DNA of 64,000 nucleotides, taken from positions 64,001 to 128,000 of IMG/VR virus record IMGVR_UViG_3300048930_000242. The stretch is one strand, 5' to 3'. The position numbers were made by a program, and so were the translations under genes. Numbering within the stretch: position 1 is the first letter of the stretch; each line of letters begins with the position of its first letter. Positions 9,550 through 64,000 of the stretch are shown here, piece after piece. The notes beneath the pieces were generated by a model. That model did not search any database. It had not been told where the DNA came from and was given only the letters and a program-made list of their open reading frames with translations. This DNA is from a virus.

Positions 9550-10307
9550 CGTCTAATCACGCCTCTCATTGTCTTGTCGAACTCCGAAACGATATTGGCC
9601 AGATAACGCGGACGGAGCACCTTGATAATCCGCTTCTTCTCGTTCTCGATTTCTTCATGTTCTTGGTTTGTAACAAAGACCGACTCCGGATGAGTGTACG
9701 GTCCGATGTTCTCCCAGACCAAGTCTCCATCCACAACGGTCTGACCGAATCCTCCAGGCCAAACCGGCTCGGTTGCTCCAGAGATTGAGTCGTTTCCGTT
9801 ATTGAGTTCAATCACTTTGAATCTGAATGGAGTTGCTGGAAGATTGAGTACGTTTTCCGGCGCGGCCGCTTCTTGAGCGTTCACTACTGTCGGAACCACG
9901 ATCTCGAGGCCTTTGAATCCGTGCTCTGGTTTCCATCGTTGCTCGAAGATAACAGGTTCATAATAGACTCTGTCTTCGAAGACATAATGATGAATGTCAT
10001 ACCTTGTCTCTCCTGGATACTTCAGAGCGATTAGCCGATCGAGTTCCACTTGGGAGAGACACCAATCGAAGAGAGGATTCACCATATCATTCAGGCCGAG
10101 GATGATCCAGTCATATTCTTCGGAGCCATAGAAGTCATGAGCGAGACCCCATGGAGTCTCACCACCCTTGACCTTATAGAAACCGACCAGCCGATAATCG
10201 TCCTTGATGTCTCTGAGGAATGTGGCTCTCCTTGTTAGATCGACCAATTGACGACCAAGGAAATTGACCTTTGGGAAGTACTCGAAATAGTTCTTGACTG
10301 CGGCCAT
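9546..10307 (-). CDS. gp53: Baseplate wedge subunit, gp53-like, with an inserted domain
   Basis: YFEYFP, GETP..LA..FYG...YDWIIL..N...NP.FDW, IHHY, E..ENEKKR.IKVL.P. Confidence 0.9.
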   Translation of the reverse strand: MAAVKNYFEYFPKVNFLGRQLVDLTRRATFLRDIKDDYRLVGFYKVKGGETPWGLAHDFYGSEEYDWIILGLNDMVNPLFDWCLSQVELDRLIALKYPGETRYDIHHYVFEDRVYYEPVIFEQRWKPEHGFKGLEIVVPTVVNAQEAAAPENVLNLPATPFRFKVIELNNGNDSISGATEPVWPGGFGQTVVDGDLVWENIGPYTHPESVFVTNQEHEEIENEKKRIIKVLRPRYLANIVSEFDKTMRGVIRR

Positions 10308-22872: not shown

Positions 22873-22898
22873 GGGTGATCTAGGTGAATTCTGAGAAG
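22873..22898 (+). repeat. 26-bp direct repeat, copy 1
   Basis: GGGTGATCTAGGTGAATTCTGAGAAG, identical at 24073-24098. Confidence 0.9.
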
Positions 22899-24072: not shown

Positions 24073-24098
24073 GGGTGATCTAGGTGAATTCTGAGAAG
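24073..24098 (+). repeat. 26-bp direct repeat, copy 2
   Basis: Identical to 22873-22898. Confidence 0.9.
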
Positions 24099-37463: not shown

Positions 37464-38156
37464 TCAGACGATGATGGTGTTCACGAGCTTCAGCACGTTT
37501 GTCATGAAGACATGTTTGCCGAGGACCGGATTGTCGTAGAACTGGTTGACCAGAGTGAAGTCGACCAGATTCCGTGAGATCTGAGCCTCCGAGGCGTGAC
37601 TTCGGAACTCCTCTTTGCTGGTCGCTCCGATCGAACTCCCAAGAGCCTCGACCTGGATGATCACTCCGCCCATCTGGCGGATTGCCTCGGCCTCGTTATC
37701 GAAGCGCACGTCGGTGATCACCGTGAAGTAGCCATTGGCCTTGTTCTTCTGGACGTTCCGACGGACAATGTCCAGCCAGATTGAGTCCGAGATCATGTTT
37801 CGGCCCCAGTCTGTGCCGAGAGTCTGGAGCATGAACCGCAATGACTTGCCTCCGAACTCCGGTATAGGGTCGTTCTTGCCGACTCCACCGTGCTCTTTGT
37901 AGATCTTGTCTACGTCGATTCCGAGACACTTGATCATCTTGCGGATCGGCTCGGCGAAGGACTCTCGCTTGACACGGATACCGGAAGACTCGATCGCATC
38001 TCCGGCCGAGTCCTTGCCGGAGCCGGCTTTTCCGGCGAAACCAATCACCGGAATCTTGATATCTTGGAAACCTTCGGACTTCTTGAAGATCTGCTGGTAG
38101 AAGGCATTCGCGACCTTCTCAAAATCAATGATGGCCGCTTGGCCCAACTTAGACAT
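37464..38156 (-). CDS. gp1: Deoxynucleoside monophosphate kinase (T4 gp1-like)
   Basis: G.AGSGKD, SFAEP, R.MLQTLGTDWGR, ITDVRFDNE, HASE. Confidence 0.92.
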   Translation of the reverse strand: MSKLGQAAIIDFEKVANAFYQQIFKKSEGFQDIKIPVIGFAGKAGSGKDSAGDAIESSGIRVKRESFAEPIRKMIKCLGIDVDKIYKEHGGVGKNDPIPEFGGKSLRFMLQTLGTDWGRNMISDSIWLDIVRRNVQKNKANGYFTVITDVRFDNEAEAIRQMGGVIIQVEALGSSIGATSKEEFRSHASEAQISRNLVDFTLVNQFYDNPVLGKHVFMTNVLKLVNTIIV

Positions 38157-52346: not shown

Positions 52347-52414
52347 CGACTGGTCCCAGGTTCGACCTGGATCTCCTCTTAGAGGGAGGCGACTTTGCCT
52401 TAGTCCAACCAGTC
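52347..52414 (-). tRNA. Atypical tRNA-like element (anticodon TCT or CTA, no CCA)
   Basis: GACTGGT/ACCAGTC acceptor, GACT/AGTC D stem, GTCGAAC T loop. Confidence 0.6.
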
Positions 52415-54332: not shown

Positions 54333-54421
54333 TGGCGGAAGCAGGACGTCTCGATCGCCATACCCTTTCAGGTACCCAACGCTTTCCAGGCGTGGCCGAC
54401 TCCCCGGTCGGTTCAGCTTCC
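54333..54421 (-). tRNA. tRNA-Ser(GGA), 8/4 fold
   Basis: GGAAGCTG/CTGCTTCC-G-CCA, GGCG-ATCGAGA-CGTC. Confidence 0.88.
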
Positions 54422-55619: not shown

Positions 55620-55702
55620 AATGTGCATCTTCCGGAGGGCAATCTAGGTGAAATCTGAGAGACTTCGCCGATCCAACTACTGGAACATGCTTCTAAATTC
55701 GC

Positions 55703-55770
55703 CAGAGTCATGGGATTCGAACCCAACCTGCCGCTCAACGCGGAGTGCCAACCAAATACACCTCACTCTG
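55703..55770 (-). tRNA. Degenerate tRNA-like element
   Basis: GGTTCGAATCCC T arm, CAGAGT/ACTCTG acceptor, shrunken anticodon loop, no CCA. Confidence 0.55.
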
Positions 55771-55839
55771 ACTCAACACCCGAGGTTCATGAGGCCTCGT
55801 GTCGGGCGATACCGTCGACTGTATGCCCAGTTGTGTTCT

Positions 55840-55915
55840 TGGCGCGCCTGGAGAGACTTGAACTCCCAACCTTCTCCTTAGGACGGAGCGGCTCTATCCG
55901 TTGAGCTACAGGCGC
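55840..55915 (-). tRNA. tRNA-Arg(CCT)
   Basis: Cloverleaf, A20, CCA. Confidence 0.92.
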
Positions 55916-55921
55916 ATATTT

Positions 55922-55996
55922 TGGAGGTCAGGGTGGGAGTCGAACCCACCTACAACGGGTTTGCAATCCGAGGCATAGCCGCTCTGCCACCTGACC
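55922..55996 (-). tRNA. tRNA-Cys(GCA)
   Basis: TTGCAAA loop, U73, CCA. Confidence 0.92.
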
Positions 55997-56004
55997 GGAA
56001 ATTC

Positions 56005-56380
56005 TTGCACCGTATCGGCGGTGCCACCCGGATAGACTTGGTCAGCCAACGTCTATCAGATCAGCCTCAAGCAGCCATAGCTACCGGAGCAAAGTACTCG
56101 TCATTTGCGGTTACTTTAGGTTTGGACTCTTTAGGACGGACTTGCCGACTTAAGCAAGCTACCCGATCCACGCGAGCTACCATCTCGGATCGCCAACAGG
56201 TTAGTATGACATCAGTCGAAGCCAGGGCAGGCCCATCAAAAGCTCTTTAGGTGGCTCCGGGTCTTGATACGGAGCACTTACATCCCCTTTCGTACCTAAA
56301 GGGCTTATGGTGGACCTGGCGGGAATCGAACCCGCGTGTTGCTGCCTTTTCGCTGTCAGTTTACGATCATTCAAGCCCTA
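56005..56380 (-). ncRNA. ssrA: Two-piece (circularly permuted) tmRNA
   Basis: Acceptor piece ends CAGGTCC-A-CCA at 56308; coding piece starts GGGCCTG at 56234 (G3:U70); tag ANDEYFAPVAMAA at 56108-56067; outer ends approximate. Confidence 0.92.
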
Positions 56381-57177: not shown

Positions 57178-57311
57178 CTTATCTCTCTCTCTCTGTTAGT
57201 GAATTGCGAAGTCCATTATCTATTAGGCTGGTATGAGTTCCGAAGTCATACCGTATGAGCTTTGCTTCAGGCGCAAGCTCTTAAGCCACTCCGATCTTCG
57301 GAATCAGAAAT

Positions 57312-57385
57312 TGGTACCTCTGACAAGAATCGAACTTGTGTAGCTGGCATGTCATACCAGAGCTCTACCATTGAGCTACAGAGGC
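57312..57385 (-). tRNA. tRNA-Val(GAC)
   Basis: CTGGT-ATGACAT-GCCAG, CCA. Confidence 0.9.
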
Positions 57386-57391
57386 ATTGAA

Positions 57392-57985
57392 TCAAATCGC
57401 GACGACGATCTTCTTTCCAGGAGTGCCGAACATCGCCTTGGTGTGAAGCTCTCCTCCGATGTCTCTTCGATAGAAGTACTCGGAGAAGTAAGGATGCTGG
57501 ACCAACTCTGGGTCGTCCGGTTCTACATCATGAAGAGTATCAGGCGCCAACAGAGCGGCCGCTTGGTCTCGAGGAATAGCGTACTTCTTCATGAAGTCCA
57601 GGCCAACCTCTTTGATCATGAACCGGAGCATCGGTCCAGAAGTCTCGTTGAAAGCTCTTCCGAAGTCCTCTCTGATCTGCATCGCCAGAGCGGCTTTTCC
57701 TTCGGCGGTTCCATCGGTGAAGACGGCAACTCGCTTTCGACCACCCTTGTCCTTGTAGAAAGCGCCTGAGACGATCGACTCTCCTCGGCGGATCAACTTC
57801 CACATTGGAAGGTTCCGAACCATGTCATCAGGAGAGCGGAATCCAGAACCATGGATTCCGCCGATCTTCGCATAGGCCTTCTTCAGCTTCTCAAAGACCT
57901 CCTCAGCGTACTTCTCTCGGATCGCTCGATCGTCGGTAAAAAGGTTCAGAACCCTCTCGGCGAGGAACTGTTCAAAGAGTAGCAT
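57392..57985 (-). CDS. Hypothetical protein with capsid-targeting-like N-terminus
   Basis: MLLFEQFLAE; ATAGATA at 58016-58022. Confidence 0.7.
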   Translation of the reverse strand: MLLFEQFLAERVLNLFTDDRAIREKYAEEVFEKLKKAYAKIGGIHGSGFRSPDDMVRNLPMWKLIRRGESIVSGAFYKDKGGRKRVAVFTDGTAEGKAALAMQIREDFGRAFNETSGPMLRFMIKEVGLDFMKKYAIPRDQAAALLAPDTLHDVEPDDPELVQHPYFSEYFYRRDIGGELHTKAMFGTPGKKIVVAI

Positions 57986-58024
57986 GGTTGGTTTCCGTGT
58001 TGGTCAGAGTCCAACTATCTATTC

Positions 58025-58597
58025 TCAGTCACTCCGCTCCGCAAAGGAGTTCCGAAGCTCATTGACGAACTTCGGAAGCAGATGGACTCGCTGGAACCGG
58101 TGATGGCCTTTGTCATAGACCTCGACATCCATGTACTTCGTCAAGAGTTCGATGTTCGGCCGCTGGTCGATGATCTCGTCACCGAGTTCGATCAGAGCGA
58201 CGCCGTGGACTCCAGAAGCGAACTTGAATGCTCCTTGGTACATCGCTTCGTAGCGAGCCTTCAGGTGGAGAGGAGCATCAGGTCCGAAGTACCGATCAGG
58301 ACGAAACGAAGGATTGATCAGAAGACACTTGCCGGAACTAGCGCCGGCCGCCGCCAGAGCCCAGAGAGCACCGAAAGAGTGTCCAACGAAGATGTCGTCC
58401 GGCCGAGTGCAGTCAAGGACAATGTCGACCATCTGGTCCGGCTGGCTGAAGTCCATGTTGATGCATGCCTTCGGAGCCTGAAGCGCCTTGTACTTCGAAG
58501 ACTCATGAGATGAGTCAAGACCATGGAAGAAGAAATTCACCGACTCAGGTCGGCTTTGGTTCGTTCCATAGTCAGTCACAAGAAGTCGGCTCATCAT
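58025..58597 (-). CDS. Alpha/beta hydrolase (YqiA-like esterase)
   Basis: HG..SS, GHSFG, LINP, DE, H.F. Confidence 0.82.
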   Translation of the reverse strand: MMSRLLVTDYGTNQSRPESVNFFFHGLDSSHESSKYKALQAPKACINMDFSQPDQMVDIVLDCTRPDDIFVGHSFGALWALAAAGASSGKCLLINPSFRPDRYFGPDAPLHLKARYEAMYQGAFKFASGVHGVALIELGDEIIDQRPNIELLTKYMDVEVYDKGHHRFQRVHLLPKFVNELRNSFAERSD

Positions 58598-58610
58598 GAT
58601 CTCCTAAAAG

Positions 58611-58700
58611 TGGCGGATGGCACAGGTATCGATCCCGATGGCTCTGTGGCCACGTATGGGTTAGCAACCCACCCTGACAACCCCGGTCAGTTTACCATCC
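58611..58700 (-). tRNA. tRNA-Ser(GCT), 8/4 fold
   Basis: GGATGGTA/TGCCATCC-G-CCA. Confidence 0.9.
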
Positions 58701-58951
58701 ATGTTAGTCGTAGTAGCCTTCTTCGAGAGCCCATCCGTAGAGAATCAGCTCGAGATCTTCAAGCGGCGCTTGATAGAACTCATTGGCGATCTCAAGATAC
58801 GGATGGCCACCGGTCGGAGAAGTGAAGATCGCCAGATTACCTGCGTAGAGGTAGCACTCGCGATCCGAAAAGTCGTCATTGTTAGTCGGCGACCGTGTGG
58901 CTTGGAACTCTGCGAAGGTCATCATTGCTGCTTCTCCTAGACTATGATAGA

Positions 58952-58996
58952 ATTCTACCACAACGGAGATGAGATGTACAGCACTGAATTGTAAAC
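58952..58996 (-). promoter_or_regulatory. Early promoter copy
   Basis: GTTTACAATTCAGTGC-TGTACA-N17-TAGAAT. Confidence 0.85.
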
Positions 58997-59097
58997 AATG
59001 TTGCTTCCGAAGGTTGGGACTGGATTACCCAACTTGCAAGAGTCCTTGGTAGAACTCGTTGCCACTCATTACTTACTTGCCGTAAGCCTTCGGAAAA

Positions 59098-59185
59098 TGG
59101 CGGAAAGCCGAGGTCTCGATCCCCAGTCCTCTCGGACCGATTCGCTTTCAAGGCGGTCCCGGCGCGCCTGTCCGGTTGACTTTCC
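59098..59185 (-). tRNA. tRNA-Ser(TGA), 8/4 fold
   Basis: GGAAAGTC/GGCTTTCC-G-CCA. Confidence 0.9.
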
Positions 59186-59189
59186 ATAT

Positions 59190-59277
59190 TGGTACTCTCG
59201 ATGGGACTCGAACCCACAACCCAGTTTCCCAGGTACGGCACCTCAAGCCGTTGCGTATGCCATTCCGCCACGAGAGC
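59190..59277 (-). tRNA. tRNA-Leu(GAG)
   Basis: Long V arm, CCA. Confidence 0.93.
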
Positions 59278-59287
59278 ATTGAAACTT

Positions 59288-59362
59288 TGGTGCCCCAACA
59301 GAGAATCGAACTCCGATCTAACCCTTACCAAGGGCTTGTACTAACCGTTGTACTATAGGGGC
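59288..59362 (-). tRNA. tRNA-Thr(GGT)
   Basis: Cloverleaf, CCA. Confidence 0.92.
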
Positions 59363-59368
59363 GAAACT

Positions 59369-59445
59369 TGGAGCCGTCGGCGAGGACTTAAACCCGCACT
59401 ATCCTTCTTACGAGGAAGGTTGCACTATCATTATGCTACGACGGC
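59369..59445 (-). tRNA. tRNA-Thr(CGT), atypical T arm
   Basis: CCTTC-CTCGTAA-GAAGG; T loop TTTAAGT. Confidence 0.85.
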
Positions 59446-59547
59446 ATTGTAAATTACACGCACCGTCCAAAAGGCCCATTTCTTTTGAACTAGCTCTTCT
59501 TTCTTCATAGAGCTGGATGCTATTAGGCTAAATGCGTGCAACTTGAT

Positions 59548-59623
59548 TGGCGCGGCTACCAGGACTCGAACCTGGACCCCATGGCTTCGTAGGCCAGGAC
59601 ATTCTCCATTGTGCTATAGCCGC
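59548..59623 (-). tRNA. tRNA-Arg(ACG)
   Basis: CTACGAA loop, CCA. Confidence 0.9.
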
Positions 59624-59718
59624 ATTGAACTAAAGAGTCGCCCTGGTTCTGAGCCAGCGTATAGAAGCTTGATTCTACAAGACATTCTATGGGTTCCGCA
59701 CCAGCAACTCATTGAAAT

Positions 59719-59795
59719 TGGCGACCCCGGAGAGACTCGAACTCCCAACATCCTGGTTCGAAGCCAGGTGCAACTATCCATTGTGCTACGGGGTC
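59719..59795 (-). tRNA. tRNA-Arg(TCG)
   Basis: CCTGG-CTTCGAA-CCAGG, CCA. Confidence 0.9.
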
Positions 59796-59802
59796 ATGTG
59801 AT

Positions 59803-59876
59803 TGGTAGCGGGCCCTGAGTTGAACTAGGCTCTTCAGCGTATGAAACTGACGAGGTCGCCGGACCTCCTACCCGCT
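59803..59876 (-). tRNA. Atypical tRNA (CAT)
   Basis: TTCATAC loop, 5-bp D stem, weak T stem, CCA. Confidence 0.7.
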
Positions 59877-59889
59877 ATTGAATGTTTAG

Positions 59890-59964
59890 TGGTGTGACCG
59901 ATGGGAATCGAACCCATATCGGAGCATTCACAGTGCTCCACTCTGGCCATTGAGCTACGGCCAC
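59890..59964 (-). tRNA. tRNA-His(GTG) with A73
   Basis: GAGCA-CTGTGAA-TGCTC; no G-1:C73. Confidence 0.92.
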
Positions 59965-59979
59965 ACCACTAAACACTTC

Positions 59980-60603
59980 TTAAATTTCAAATTCTTTGCA
60001 TTCTCTAAGAGTTTCAATTATCTTGAGATTCGGAACAGTCTCGCGAATTACTTTCAACTTTTCCGCTTGAACTCTTACCGCATGCTGATTTTTAGGATCA
60101 AGATACAAATTGAACTTCGGAAGGTAGAAATCAGGAAAATAATTATGAATCACGCCATCATTATCTTTCCATTCAACTGGACCAGGACGAATCCATTCTA
60201 TTTCAAGAAAATCGAGTCTCTTAGCTAGTTCCAATTCCCAACTAGAATCAAGAGTAACTCCGTTGTAGTCAATTGGATTCTTGCGCAATCTTCTGTGTTT
60301 TGATTTTAGCGCAGCTTCACTTATTTTCTTTTTCGATTCTTGCGTGTGCTTCTTTCCTGGCTTCCCTTTTAGGGCTGCGTTTTTGTCTTTGTACTTACCA
60401 AGTTTTGCGTTGGCTGATACTGTTCTCTTTCTCTTTTCTTCGGCTTCTTTCGAATGGACATTTTCCCAAATTCGACTTTTCAAATTTTCTACGTATTGGC
60501 TAATTTTAGGATTTGATTCACACCATCTAGAATGATTAGCCATCCATCCTTTTGGCTTATCAACAGTTTCGAAAATTTGGCCACAATGCTTACAGGTTGG
60601 CAT
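59980..60603 (-). mobile_element. Putative homing endonuclease (NUMOD3 plus PD-(D/E)xK domain) inside the tRNA array
   Basis: CxxC, GKKHTQESKKKIS, SSWE..YFPDFYL..YLDPK; AT-rich. Confidence 0.75.
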
Positions 60604-60623
60604 AACTCTCTTCTAATAGAAAT

Positions 60624-60703
60624 TGGCGCGCCTGGCAGGATTCGAACCCGCGTGTATCCAGCTAACCTTTCAAGGAGTTAGAAGCTCCAGGGTATACAGG
60701 CGC
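60624..60703 (-). tRNA. Rearranged tRNA-Arg(TCT)-like RNA
   Basis: Normal acceptor, T arm and CCA; anticodon arm directly after the acceptor; D-loop motif AGCTGGATA after it. Confidence 0.8.
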
Positions 60704-60914
60704 GTATTATCTATACGGAAGACAGTTACTTTATCCACTTAGGCGCGTGCCTAATCCATTCGAGCCACGAGGCGATTTGTATCAGAACCGACCAGACCAG
60801 AAGATCGAAACAATAAGAGCCGTAATCAAGACATCGCGAATCATCTTCGCGTAGTGCAATCGAGCTTCAAGCTGCTTGTTCGTCATCATGTCTTCATCTC
60901 CATTTGTTAGAAGT

Positions 60915-60959
60915 ATTCTAACACCTTTCGATGCGCTTGTCCAGCACTGAATTGTAAAC
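60915..60959 (-). promoter_or_regulatory. Early promoter copy
   Basis: GTTTACAATTCAGTGC-TGGACA-N17-TAGAAT. Confidence 0.85.
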
Positions 60960-60961
60960 TT

Positions 60962-61055
60962 TGGTACTCCTATCAGGACTCGAACCTGAACTGACCGCTA
61001 ATCTGGCGGAAATCGGGTTTATAAGGCCCGCCGTGCTACCTTACACTATAGGAGC
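60962..61055 (-). tRNA. tRNA-Ile(TAT) with long variable arm
   Basis: CTTATAA loop; V arm CCGC-CAGATTA-GCGG; CCA. Confidence 0.85.
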
Positions 61056-61059
61056 AAAG

Positions 61060-61137
61060 TGGTACCACGAGTGGGAATCGAACCCGACCTGATCTGTCTT
61101 GTAAGGACAGTGTTCTCACCAGAAAAGCGATCGTGGC
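61060..61137 (-). tRNA. tRNA-Val(TAC)
   Basis: CTGTC-CTTACAA-GACAG, CCA. Confidence 0.85.
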
Positions 61138-61145
61138 ATTGAATT

Positions 61146-61216
61146 TGGCGGAAGCTATCGATGCGGGCTGCGCAACCCGATCCTCCCTTGCAAGAAAGAT
61201 CTACACCGTAACCTCC
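61146..61216 (-). ncRNA. CCA-ending non-cloverleaf RNA
   Basis: GGAGGTTA/TAGCTTCC-G-CCA, a second helix and two hairpins. Confidence 0.7.
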
Positions 61217-61228
61217 ATTGAACTTGTT

Positions 61229-61360
61229 GCTTAGTAGTTCATGCCTGATGGTGCAGACGCCATCACATTGTGATCTAGCCCCTGAACCAAACCTTTCGGC
61301 TACTCGCTTGACGCTTTGCCCATCGATATGATGAGGTTCTACGTACATGAGCTACTAAGC
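61229..61360 (-). ncRNA. Unassigned ~130-nt RNA with a 15-bp terminal stem
   Basis: GCTTAGTAGCTCATG ... CATGAACTACTAAGC. Confidence 0.6.
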
Positions 61361-61364
61361 ATTC

Positions 61365-61441
61365 TGGTACCCTTAGTCGGATTCGAACCGACATCCACCG
61401 GATTTTAAGTCCAGCCGCGCTGCCAGTTAGCGTACAAGGGC
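61365..61441 (-). tRNA. tRNA-Leu(TAA), short V arm
   Basis: CTTAAAA loop, CCA. Confidence 0.9.
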
Positions 61442-61726
61442 AAATCTTATTTCTTGATGATCATCTGGGCCAAGTCCTCAAGGCTATTGGCCGAGAACTT
61501 AGCTACTCCTTGGTCTCCATCCATCAACACGTCAATGGTAAACCCGTGCTGCCCTTTCTTGACACCGATGATAGTCGCTCTAGTGTTGCCTCGACGATCC
61601 CGAGTGTTCTTGAACCTAATGATCTTTCCGATCAGGTCGCTCTCGTCCATTATCATCTCTGTTAGTTAGATGGCTATCTAAGAACCCTCTCGTGCCCTCT
61701 AAGGCAGAGGAGAAGGCCATGTTGAT

Positions 61727-61803
61727 TGGTACCCCAGAGGAGATTCGAACTCCCAACCACGAACTTTTGAGGATCGCCGCACTGCCAGTTAGCGTACCGG
61801 GGC
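61727..61803 (-). tRNA. tRNA-Leu(CAA), short V arm
   Basis: CTCAAAA loop, CCA. Confidence 0.88.
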
Positions 61804-61811
61804 ATTGAATT

Positions 61812-61886
61812 TGGAGCGGGTAGTGGGAATCGAACCCACCTAATCTTCCTTGGCAAGGAAGCAATCAACCACTGACTCATACCCGC
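61812..61886 (-). tRNA. tRNA-Gly(GCC)
   Basis: TTGCCAA loop, U73, CCA. Confidence 0.92.
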
Positions 61887-61895
61887 ATAACTCAC

Positions 61896-61986
61896 TGGTG
61901 GGACGAGTGGGATTTGAACCCACGATGAGGATTTCTCCTGTCGGATTAAAAGTCCGATGTCTTCGACCAGACTTGACGACCGTCCC
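61896..61986 (-). tRNA. tRNA-Lys(TTT) with long variable arm
   Basis: TCGGA-CTTTTAA-TCCGA; V arm AGGA-GAAA-TCCT. Confidence 0.88.
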
Positions 61987-62065
61987 GTATCTGTCACTAT
62001 AGGAATTCATCTCCTATAGAGGCCTCTTCTCAAGAGGACTTCAGCCCGATTGACCGGGAACAAAA

Positions 62066-62140
62066 TGGTAGCGAGAGAGGGATTTGAACCCACACCGCCG
62101 GCTTATGAGGCCAGCAATCTGCCAGTTAATATATCTCGCG
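62066..62140 (-). tRNA. tRNA-Met(CAT), initiator-like
   Basis: C1xU72 mismatch, CTCATAA, CCA. Confidence 0.85.
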
Positions 62141-62146
62141 TCAAAC

Positions 62147-62274
62147 TTTATCGTACCTGCCACCCCGCAGACCTCAGCCGTAGGCTCTTCCTTAAGAAGC
62201 GTACCTATTTGCCCGGTAGGGACTTCGTACTTCGATTAGGATTTCTCCGTTGAGCGGTACGAAGACACGATAAA
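62147..62274 (-). ncRNA. Unassigned ~125-nt structured RNA
   Basis: TTTATCGT/ACGATAAA terminal stem; CTTCGTAC/GTACGAAG internal stem. Confidence 0.55.
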
Positions 62275-62276
62275 CT

Positions 62277-62352
62277 TGGCGCCTCCTCCAGGTTTCGAAC
62301 CTGACTCTCCTGCTTTTCAAGCAGGCGCTTTCACCAGATTAGCTTAGAAGGC
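62277..62352 (-). tRNA. tRNA-Phe(GAA)
   Basis: CCTGC-TTGAAAA-GCAGG, CCA. Confidence 0.9.
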
Positions 62353-62428
62353 ATTGTGATAGTTGGCTCCTTGGTTTGAGGATTTGGCGACTTCCATCGT
62401 CGTCATTAGCCTTAAGGAGCTCGTTGAT

Positions 62429-62504
62429 TGGCAGCGAAGGTTGGTTTCGATCCAACTGCAATACTTTCAGAGAGTATCGGCTCAGCCACTTGCTCTTCTT
62501 CGCT
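62429..62504 (-). tRNA. tRNA-Gln(CTG)
   Basis: ATACT-CTCTGAA-AGTAT; A54 T loop; CCA. Confidence 0.85.
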
Positions 62505-62510
62505 ATTGTT

Positions 62511-62586
62511 TGGCAGCCCAGTACGGGATCGAACCGTATCCTCAGCGCTTCAAAGGCGCGGATGCAAGCCATTACACCACTGGGCA
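62511..62586 (-). tRNA. tRNA-Gln(TTG)
   Basis: CTTTGAA loop, CCA. Confidence 0.9.
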
Positions 62587-62595
62587 ACAATTGTT

Positions 62596-62672
62596 TGGCT
62601 CCTGAGGTACGACTCGAACGTACAGCCTCCGAATTAACAGTCCGGTGAATCTACCATTGATCCTACTCAGGA
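62596..62672 (-). tRNA. tRNA-Asn(GTT)
   Basis: CTGTTAA loop, G73, CCA. Confidence 0.92.
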
Positions 62673-62681
62673 ATTGAATTT

Positions 62682-62772
62682 TGGTGCGCGCAGATGGACT
62701 CGAACCACCACAGACTTATTTGGATGCGGCTGCTTTACAGGCAGCGGAGCTCAACCAGTGCTCAGTACGCGC
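62682..62772 (-). tRNA. tRNA-Tyr(GTA)
   Basis: GCTGC-CTGTAAA-GCAGC, long V region. Confidence 0.9.
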
Positions 62773-62781
62773 GTTGAAACT

Positions 62782-62857
62782 TGGTCTCTGAGAGAGGACT
62801 CGAACCTCCAACCCCTGCGCCCCAAACGCAAAGCTCTACCAATTGAGCTACTCAGAG
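62782..62857 (-). tRNA. tRNA-Pro(TGG)
   Basis: TTTGGGG loop, C1:G72, CCA. Confidence 0.92.
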
Positions 62858-62882
62858 AGAAAACTTTACAAGTAGATGGTTC

Positions 62883-62926
62883 ATTCTACCACCAAACCAT
62901 CTGCTTGTACAGCTTTGAAGTGTAAC
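62883..62926 (-). promoter_or_regulatory. Early promoter copy driving the tRNA array
   Basis: TGTACA-N17-TAGAAT. Confidence 0.75.
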
Positions 62927-62928
62927 AA

Positions 62929-63830
62929 GGTAGCCTGAGAATACGGCTTCCGGTGGTTGCCTTTCGGAGCATTATCACCATGTTGCGACACGGCGTTCTC
63001 TCCTTATCCACCTCCAGCAAGGAGGTATCAACCGTAGCGGCCTTTTTAGACTGGTGGCGTTTCCAGTGTCGTCATGTTCTATTCCAGGCCTTGTCTACCG
63101 CCTACCTTGCGACGAGCAGTACGGGCTGCTACACCCTACGTGCGACTCTTCCTGAACAACCTTTGACTTTGCGATTCTTAGGTTGACTTGATTCACCCGA
63201 AGGTGTCAAGTATTACGCTACTTTCAAACATGACCGGCAACGACTTTGCGTTTTAGTTGATGTGGGATTTGAACCGCACGCCAATTCCTTTAGATGGAAT
63301 TGCTCTACCAATGAGCTAATCGTAACCTCCTGAAGACGAGCGTTGCCGTGACTTCATGGACTTTTGGTCCACAAAATACCACCCGCCTAGTATCCTTTCG
63401 ACCGCTAAGTCTAGTCAGATCAGTTGTACCTTCTCGGCTCTTGCGAAGCCGAAACCTTACAACCTGGTGAACCGCTCTTGGCCGCTAAACCTCGAACTTT
63501 GATCACCTTCATGTTCAGCTTTGCTACTCGGTCTGTTTCGCTATGATATGCGAGTGCGAATCGCCAGGAGTCTTTCTACCAGTTGGCCTTGGACTCTTTT
63601 CTCATCAAACCTTCGCGGCTATCTCCGTCACCGAAGAGGCGCTTGTGGCGCCAGCGTTGCATGATTGTTTAGATGGACCTTTCGGCGGTGGTCGGGGAGG
63701 CCTTCCACCTTTCTGCACCTTGCGGTACAACATCCTTTCATCTTTTCACTTTCGATCAAGATGTGCTAAACCAGACGGATTTCTCCGTTTCGTCCTTTTT
63801 GAAGGGAGGACTCTTCAGTAGTTCCCTTTG
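62929..63830 (-). ncRNA. Large (~900 nt) structured RNA, GOLLD-like
   Basis: ORF-free, dense GNRA/UUCG hairpins, inside a phage tRNA array, embedded tRNA-like element; family inferred from size and context only. Confidence 0.65.
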
Positions 63831-63835
63831 AAGCT

Positions 63836-63910
63836 TGGCGCGCCGCGTAGGACTCGAACCCACATCTTTCGGCTTTGGAGGCCGACATCTTGCCATTAGA
63901 CGAACGACGC
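63836..63910 (-). tRNA. tRNA-Trp(CCA)
   Basis: TCGGC-CTCCAAA-GCCGA, CCA. Confidence 0.92.
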
Positions 63911-63916
63911 AACGAG

Positions 63917-63990
63917 TGGCGGGATGGAAGGGAATCGAACCCTCATTCTCTCGTAGACAGCGAGGCATCTTACCACTAGATGACCACCCC
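63917..63990 (-). tRNA. tRNA-Asp(GTC)
   Basis: CTGTCTA loop, G73, CCA. Confidence 0.9.
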
Positions 63991-64000
63991 TTAAACTTGG

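Follow-up and report, generated by a model that had tools for sequence, protein, structure and literature searches.

Candidate small structured-RNA genes within the tRNA operons of an uncultured T4-like phage

Structured elements in the gaps of the tRNA array

The window, the whole stretch of 64,000 nucleotides (nt) that was analyzed, comprises bases 64001-128000 of IMG/VR virus record IMGVR_UViG_3300048930_000242, a complete record of 153,340 bp with direct terminal repeats at its ends, and the source genome is that of a complete, T4-like, uncultured phage. It carries an RNA island in which every RNA gene lies on the minus strand, with about 40 tRNAs, a permuted transfer-messenger RNA (tmRNA), and a GOLLD RNA. 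Eight further slots of this array, also on the minus strand and located between tRNA genes or directly after them, are the subject of this study. An earlier note on this DNA had described them as closed, end-paired, tRNA-sized structures and proposed that they form an undescribed repertoire of tRNA mimics. Our findings indicate that they include new RNA families of a known kind (coordinates in Table 1).

At default settings, ARAGORN called none of the eight slots as a tRNA (0/8), and a search of 4,227 Rfam families at E-values up to 10 matched none of them to any family, the tRNA clan included. Within the same limit, no match to ribozyme families (hammerhead, hepatitis delta virus (HDV)-like, twister, pistol, and hatchet) was found in the eight slots. 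Relaxed ARAGORN settings produced doubtful calls alone, at 59634-59710 (with an intron) and 55701-55776. Slots and tRNAs are set apart by the same A/U-rich spacers of 2-12 nt, which frequently end in TTCAAT.

Fold stability was tested against dinucleotide shuffles and expressed as z-scores. The values were -4.2 to -4.3 for the element at 59007, -3.8 to -4.2 for 61229, -2.8 to -4.25 for 59455, about -3.1 for 61146, and -2.5 to -3.4 for 57226, compared with -1.4 to -2.9 for six genuine tRNAs of the array; the folds of 55703, 59635, and 62147 were no better than those of the shuffles. Covariation, which is a stronger test than fold stability, backs five slots (55703-55838, 57226-57305, 59455-59540, 61146-61216, and 62147-62274), in which compensatory changes occur with essentially no broken pairs. 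Stability alone backs two more (59007-59095 and 61229-61360), and the slot at 59635-59710 is weak. The five covarying slots are conserved at least as well as the neighboring tRNAs: slot RNAs are 71-94% identical across lineages, compared with a median of about 71% for orthologous tRNAs and about 68-70% for the DNA of flanking open reading frames (ORFs). Small ORFs inside the slots were considered and rejected, as the substitutions are compensatory in helices and not codon-periodic.

The negative ARAGORN and Rfam results, together with covariation in five of the eight slots, confirm the observation of the earlier note that folded, tRNA-sized elements other than tRNAs fill these gaps with tRNA-type spacers. 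Its description of the slots as closed structures fails for 57226-57305, which is not closed end to end. The note had seen no standard set of anticodon and T arms in any slot; 55703-55838 has a canonical T arm and lacks an anticodon arm. Folding better than that of shuffles is found in five slots and not in the other three. Other gaps in the same range, outside the list of the note, proved to be real tRNAs overlooked at default ARAGORN settings.

Table 1. Coordinates of the RNA elements, tRNA genes, and promoter discussed in the text. Positions without a prefix refer to the window; those with a prefix refer to loci of related lineages.
Feature	Position	Strand	Remarks
F2	55703..55838	-	directly after tRNA-Arg(CCU)
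F1	57226..57305	-	between tRNA-Val(GAC) and a 132-aa ORF
F9	59455..59540	-	after tRNA-Arg(ACG)
F3	61146..61216	-	leader and trailer spacers as for a tRNA
F4	62147..62274	-	adjoins tRNA-Phe
F5	62353..62428	-	conserved RNA, absent from the list of the earlier note
Orphan cloverleaf-shaped element	59007..59095	-	last of its operon, ahead of the next promoter
Stable 132-nt element, closing helix 9-15 bp	61229..61360	-	directly 5' of F3
Weak tRNA-like element	59635..59710	-	occupies the site of the 140-nt family F7 in relatives
F7	L003:141-280, L002:539-678, L027:13513-13652		140 nt, acceptor and T arms
F8	L027:9152-9235, L029:2701-2782		about 83 nt
CCA-ended element	L027:11456-11560		about 105 nt
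Early-type promoter of RNA operons	60915..60958	-	others end at about 58952, 56726, 55575, 53076
tRNA-Ser(UGA)	59098..59185	-	relaxed ARAGORN; 80-86% identity to Caulobacter phage loci
tRNA-Ser(GCU)	58611-58700	-	relaxed ARAGORN
tRNA-Ser(GGA)	54333-54421	-	relaxed ARAGORN
tRNA-Gln(CUG)	62429..62504	-	relaxed ARAGORN; 95-96% identity in L027, L029
tRNA-Tyr(GUA), long variable arm	62686..62773	-	relaxed ARAGORN; Rfam tRNA-clan match, 34.5 bits
tRNA-Arg(UCU)	52347-52414	-	relaxed ARAGORN
Aberrant tRNA-Arg(UCU)-like gene	60627..60703	-	Rfam tRNA, 29.2 bits, at threshold; missed by ARAGORN
Predicted type I hammerhead ribozyme	63768..63824	-	between tRNA-Trp and the 5' domain of GOLLD RNA
GOLLD RNA, conserved 3' domain with embedded tRNA-like element	62932..63389	-	Rfam RF02032, 200.3 bits

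Covarying families and their relatives

Relatives of the island were reached through homologues of three of its small ORFs, on contigs from ENA, Logan, and NCBI assemblies. They represent four or five lineages with about 68-70% DNA identity (L002/L003/L004/L029-L034; L027/L028; L040; L046; and the more distant L011), across which modules are present, absent, or reshuffled in a cassette-like manner while their neighbors change. Near and distant blastn searches of 50,697 phage genomes, with the whole region and with single slots, returned tRNA, GOLLD, or chance coding-DNA matches only. Searching IMG/VR by protein and with five motifs yielded one distant relative, L011; the other 18 matches of a 16-base motif were due to chance, and no relevant match came from the other motifs. 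Among JGI metagenome contigs, the first motif had 0 matches and the second had 3, all by chance, and GTDB genome contigs returned the L027 contig and one chance match in a bacterial ribosome-binding region. One low-coverage DNA run gave short low-depth pieces and unrelated tRNA matches only, and nhmmer profiles of all families, run against the whole genome and all loci, revealed no additional paralogues.

Among the long relatives, the closest is a contig of 84.6 kb, CAZMXB010000002.1 (L027/L043), which belongs to a metagenome-assembled genome labeled uncultured Rhodoferax. This label and the two-piece tmRNA hint at a proteobacterial host of that type.

F2 consists of two domains, the first of which, on the 5' side, is a three-way junction. 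The second resembles a tRNA: its acceptor helix has 8 bp, its T arm bears the canonical 7-nt T loop, a D-like arm is present, and a short variable hairpin takes the place of the anticodon arm; no CCA is encoded. Homologues lie at L002:5472-5632 and L027:19197-19349, and a paralogue at L003:378-529. With three orthologues and one paralogue aligned on a hand-drawn structure, 91.4% of cells were paired, compared with 37-46% when the partners were slid, and 13 pairs were changed on both sides, compared with 0-2 when slid, a result attained by 0/500 shuffles. The identity of F2 to its relatives is 74-79%, against 58% for the adjacent tRNA-Arg. A covariance model of the family, R2, recovers known F2 members only, with no significant recovery of a candidate in L011.

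F1 combines a 5' hairpin with a closed 3' domain of two hairpins, and the loop of the 3' hairpin could pair alternatively with the 5' segment. It is 85% identical in L002 and L027, where the adjacent tRNA-Val reaches 62-64%, and it shows 3 compensatory pairs and 0 broken ones across the window and two further lineages. At the same junction, L040 retains both tRNA-Val and the downstream ORF and lacks F1, which marks the element as a discrete module. A riboswitch or cis-regulatory leader does not describe it, since there is no Rfam match and L040 keeps the downstream ORF without F1. Two other candidates were rejected for this element. By inspection, an HDV-like ribozyme differs in helix order; a trans target, suggested by a 13-nt stretch at 37598-37610 on the minus strand, in the mRNA of the ORF at 38156-37464, that is perfectly complementary to the hairpin loop with part of its stem, was discounted because about 0.3 such matches are expected over all words tried.

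F9 has a long closing helix and three hairpins whose loops are strongly conserved. In its one homologue (L046:1325-1420, after tRNA-Arg(GCG)), 10 of the 30 pairs are compensatory and 0 are broken. F3 is built on a 14-bp terminal helix with one bulge, carries two hairpins, and has a 3' end in G-CCA exactly like that of tRNAs; its homologues at L027:11205-11281 and L029:3094-3166 provide 6 compensatory pairs, and a different tRNA follows it in each lineage. F4 forms a three-way junction with a 9-bp closing helix and a short GNRA-tetraloop hairpin on one arm. Its identity to L029:2783-2912 is 88-90%, compared with 65% for the neighboring tRNA-Phe, and all substitutions at paired positions (8/8) keep pairing, with 3 double changes and 0/39 pairs broken.

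F5 is closed by a 7-bp helix; it combines a variable hairpin with long unpaired stretches that are invariant, and it has CCA within its 3' end. Its identity is 80-86% in L027:9001-9075 and L029:2458-2530 (three lineages in all), with 2 compensatory pairs in the variable hairpin and z-scores of -2.0 to -2.6. Within its closing helix (62358-62420, minus strand), an anti-Shine-Dalgarno-like string pairs with a perfect Shine-Dalgarno-like string, and both are invariant in the three lineages.

Comparison of these sequences establishes that the elements exist, that several of them are more conserved than the tRNAs, and that their helices covary. We favor, with a probability of about 0.68, the reading that the slots hold independent genes for small structured RNAs, mixed in kind, which lie within polycistronic tRNA operons and whose products are processed together with the tRNAs.

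Slots with few or no homologues

The cloverleaf-shaped element at 59007-59095 is closed by a 9-bp helix and has three hairpins, but neither a 7-nt anticodon loop nor CCA. The 132-nt element at 61229-61360 forms 14 end pairs; in comparison with L029:2993-3080, its flanks and closing helix are retained, with one compensatory change. The element at 59635-59710 lacks CCA; its terminal helix measures 8 bp, one hairpin resembles a T arm, and the central arm is extended. The doubtful call of relaxed ARAGORN here was a tRNA-Leu with an 11-nt intron.

The last of these may be a shortened remnant of F7, although it has only its termini and position in common with that family, and the F7 model, R1, does not match it. 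F7, F8, and a CCA-ended element of about 105 nt are present in relatives and not in the window. Between L003 and L027, F7 shows 9 compensatory pairs, and its invariant 40-nt block, which could form a pseudoknot, has no match in the collection of 50,697 phage genomes.

A conceivable origin of the slots is neutral decay, with the elements being the remains of tRNA genes or scars left by homing endonucleases. ORFs of the homing-endonuclease type are indeed interspersed in the array (for instance, at 59980-60603), along with SegE-like genes, and both the weak fold of 59635-59710, resembling a shortened F7, and the unconserved interior of 61229 would fit such a history. Nevertheless, five slots are conserved at least as well as functional tRNAs, with compensatory substitutions and no broken pairs, so that decay can account for two or three slots at most and is very improbable as a general explanation.

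Operon organization and possible processing

Several operon starts on the minus strand are marked by a repeated early-type promoter in which a 17-nt upstream motif precedes two hexamers, -35-like and -10-like, set 17 nt apart. There are 9 occurrences of the upstream motif where 0.01 would be expected, and the two hexamers agree with the -35/-10 consensus at 9-10 of 12 positions. No intrinsic terminator was predicted on the minus strand within the array. An 18-nt motif recurs where transcription units meet, preceded by a hairpin and followed by a promoter or gene start (55642-55659, 24078-24095, and 22878-22895, minus strand; also L002:901-918 and L003:660-677), and may be a processing or termination signal.

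Under the favored reading, early promoters of the sigma-70 type would co-transcribe tRNAs, slot RNAs, and a few small ORFs. Because each module has an acceptor-like terminal helix and the common A/U-rich spacer, RNase P would cut 5' of that helix, and 3' trimming would fall to endo- and exonucleases; the hammerhead described below would play the equivalent part for the GOLLD 5' end. The products would be stable RNAs of 60-140 nt, freed together with the tRNAs, like RNAC and RNAD of the T4 cluster. The earlier proposal of co-transcribed RNAs released by the tRNA machinery thus agrees with the anatomy of the locus (promoters, lack of terminators, spacers, acceptor-like helices, and CCA), while the release itself, like the transcription, processing, and stability of the slot RNAs, is what we infer from the sequence.

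The same anatomy could be that of cis-acting transcript elements, which would guide processing, protect 3' ends, stand in for terminators, or act as RNase III sites and would not function as free RNAs. The elements at 57226, 59007, and 55703 lie at the 3' end of tRNA runs, before an ORF or the next promoter, in an array without intrinsic terminators; 61229 retains only its long closing helix across lineages; and the tRNA-like half of F2 could merely define the 3' end of the domain upstream of it, as the tRNA-like mascRNA does for its upstream RNA. However, it is not only the helices but also the loops and junctions that are strongly conserved in F1, F4, F5, and F9, F1 is dispensable at the L040 junction, and the internal elements F3, F4, F5, and F9 have on either side a tRNA with processing signals of its own. 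We consider a role in cis unlikely.

Other RNAs of the island

Default ARAGORN found 27 tRNAs and the permuted tmRNA in the window, the latter being confirmed by Rfam as a two-piece tmRNA encoded by a separate gene at 56067-56368. Six tRNAs that it overlooked (three Ser, Gln, Tyr, and Arg) were recovered at relaxed settings, and several of them are backed by Rfam or by conservation in relatives. The array runs on beyond the end of the window, and with two Ala tRNA genes located just outside it, the set serves all twenty amino acids, so that no missing tRNAs need to be sought in the remaining slots. The aberrant gene at 60627-60703 possesses acceptor, anticodon, and T arms with a displaced D region, and it is 94-95% identical to L027:12396-12473.

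Several further observations concern the tRNAs. tRNA-Ile(UAU) at 60962-61055 (94 nt) and tRNA-Lys(UUU) at 61896-61986 (91 nt) have long variable arms, which is unusual for their identities. An identical 10-nt GNRA-tetraloop hairpin occurs at exactly three sites of the array on the minus strand (61929-61938, 62239-62248, and 63777-63786), of which the first is on the long variable arm of tRNA-Lys(UUU), the second in F4, and the third in hammerhead stem III; between tRNA-Lys and F4, the likeness stretches to about 18 nt. The 79-nt gap between tRNA-Met and tRNA-Lys (61987-62065, minus strand) has a three-hairpin fold with a z-score of about -1.5, and no homologue was found for it. In the homologous array of L027, positions 10207-10278 encode a tRNA with the anticodon UUA, of the ochre-suppressor type (relaxed ARAGORN; Rfam tRNA, 39 bits).

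The non-coding region of GOLLD, which has a counterpart at L027:8141-8592 (201 bits), extends 5' as far as the hammerhead. The Rfam Hammerhead_1 match at 63768-63824 (24.1 bits, E-value 0.04) does not reach the gathering score of 34; hence, membership rests on the core and on covariation and not on the curated cut-off. The full set of core nucleotides is present in the window and in L027, where stems I and III are also retained and stem II is swapped for a different helix. With its core complete and its stems covarying, the sequence qualifies as a predicted type I hammerhead. The predicted cut, between 63774 and 63773, would yield the 5' end of a long non-coding region terminating in GOLLD.

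Comparison with known RNAs and the case for mimicry

The closest precedent is found in T4, whose RNAC (species 1, 139 nt) and RNAD (species 2, 119 nt) are non-tRNA RNAs ranging from about the size of a tRNA to twice that size, with roles that are still unknown (PMC3014915, PMC9697503). The T4 genes rnaD and rnaC directly follow tRNA-Arg on the tRNA strand, with spacers of 1-6 nt, and the slots share this location within a T4-type tRNA cluster, on the same strand and with short spacers. In addition, rnaC has a canonical T arm beside its terminal helix, as do F2 and F7. There is no homology, however: the BLAST overlap is limited to a 13-nt T-loop string, nhmmer profiles of all families found nothing in the T4 locus, R1 had no match in the T4 region at E-values up to 10 and did not recover rnaC, and R2 gave only weak tRNA-level matches of 16-17 bits there. 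The arrays also differ: along the present one, about ten elements are distributed, from at least six unrelated families, and that of T4 has two at its end; moreover, some elements here have an encoded CCA, unlike the T4 RNAs. By these searches, the slot RNAs are analogous to RNAC and RNAD in place and design and not homologous to them, and with such precedents the kind of element is, contrary to the earlier note, not an undescribed one.

GOLLD and ROOL are further structured phage RNAs whose genes neighbor tRNA genes or are interspersed with them, and their function is likewise unknown (PMC12286853). They measure 400-800 nt, compared with 60-140 nt for the slot RNAs, which have no Rfam match to either family and no hint of multimeric cages. 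In joining a non-tRNA domain to a tRNA-like one, F2 recalls YrlA (RF02553), the tRNA-like domain of tmRNA, and MALAT1 mascRNA. Its tRNA-like part is a closed 3' module and is not inserted in a Ro-binding stem as in YrlA, whose model matched no slot; the sole weak YrlA match, at 55891-55949 (20.3 bits, E-value 2.4, gathering score 69), falls over tRNA genes.

Genuine phage tRNAs are known to counter tRNA-targeting defenses, as in the cases of T5 tRNA-Tyr against a retron and T6 tRNA-Tyr against Septu (PMC13096335; bioRxiv 10.1101/2023.03.15.532788). This work makes it reasonable to consider the slots as decoys, that is, a repertoire of tRNA-imitating RNAs that would soak up tRNA-targeting defense nucleases or toxins that modify acceptor ends, yet it is not evidence for decoys in this array: the T5 and T6 molecules are decoding tRNAs, whereas the slot RNAs cannot decode, and what they have in common is the genomic compartment and a plausible setting for selection. 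The acceptor helix and canonical T arm of F2, the G-CCA on the long acceptor-like helix of F3, and the CCA end of F5 would suit a decoy, and the cassette-like gain and loss across lineages recalls accessory counter-defense genes. On the other hand, none of the eight slots contains a mimic of the anticodon stem-loop, five of the eight (57226, 59007, 59455, 61229, and 62147) are tRNA-like in their closing helix only, tRNA-clan models gave no slot score at E-values up to 10, and no experimental or genomic link to any defense system was found. Partial likeness to tRNA is limited to 55703-55838 (T arm and 8-bp acceptor helix), 61146-61216 (acceptor helix and GCCA), and, weakly, 59635-59710. With elements this heterogeneous, the uniform repertoire of mimics put forward in the earlier note finds no support; as an account of the whole set it is quite improbable, and a decoy role could possibly fit a few elements at most.

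A narrower proposal concerns F3, F5, and the tRNA-like half of F2, which could be non-decoding mimics of the upper half of tRNA, matured by the host and perhaps aminoacylated, that titrate or misdirect proteins reading the acceptor end or elbow, defense toxins among them. We consider this speculative and quite improbable.

Nature of the slot RNAs

Returning to the favored reading of independent structured-RNA genes, the set is a mixed one. What F2 and F3 retain of a tRNA is its upper half, namely, the acceptor helix together with a T arm or an encoded CCA, and from these features they probably engage tRNA-handling proteins. In contrast, F1, F4, F5, F9, and the two orphan elements are unrelated folds.

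Several points weigh against this reading. A search for RNA data on the array returned none, and the operon-end elements at 57226, 59007, and 55703 could work in cis and not as free RNAs. Each family comprises only 2-4 independent sequences, so the covariation statistics are thin; for F4, with two sequences, the test is without power, and the observed value was attained by 62/500 shuffles. End pairing, attained by 2-30% of shuffles, is common enough to carry little weight on its own, and it stands out only at 61229 (0/300 shuffles), 59455 (5/300), and 61146 (13/300). Furthermore, 59007-59095 has no homologue in any collection or locus searched, the interior of 61229-61360 has none either, with that of L029 being unrelated, and 59635-59710 (z-score of about -1.2) folds no better than shuffles.

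Implications

For the annotation of phage genomes, these findings mean that gaps in tRNA arrays should not be dismissed as spacers or pseudogenes, and that default finders overlook real tRNAs. The families described here also provide defined, short, and conserved targets for laboratory tests, and they bear on the two small RNAs of the T4 cluster, which have been unexplained for about fifty years. If the doubtful reading of F3, F5, and part of F2 as upper-half mimics were true, phage tRNA islands would also be RNA-based counter-defense islands. In this clade, roughly ten elements, belonging to at least six unrelated families that are supported by covariation and absent from Rfam, stand beside GOLLD, a hammerhead, and a two-piece tmRNA, and this makes tRNA islands look like general platforms for small structured RNAs and not mere supplements of tRNAs.

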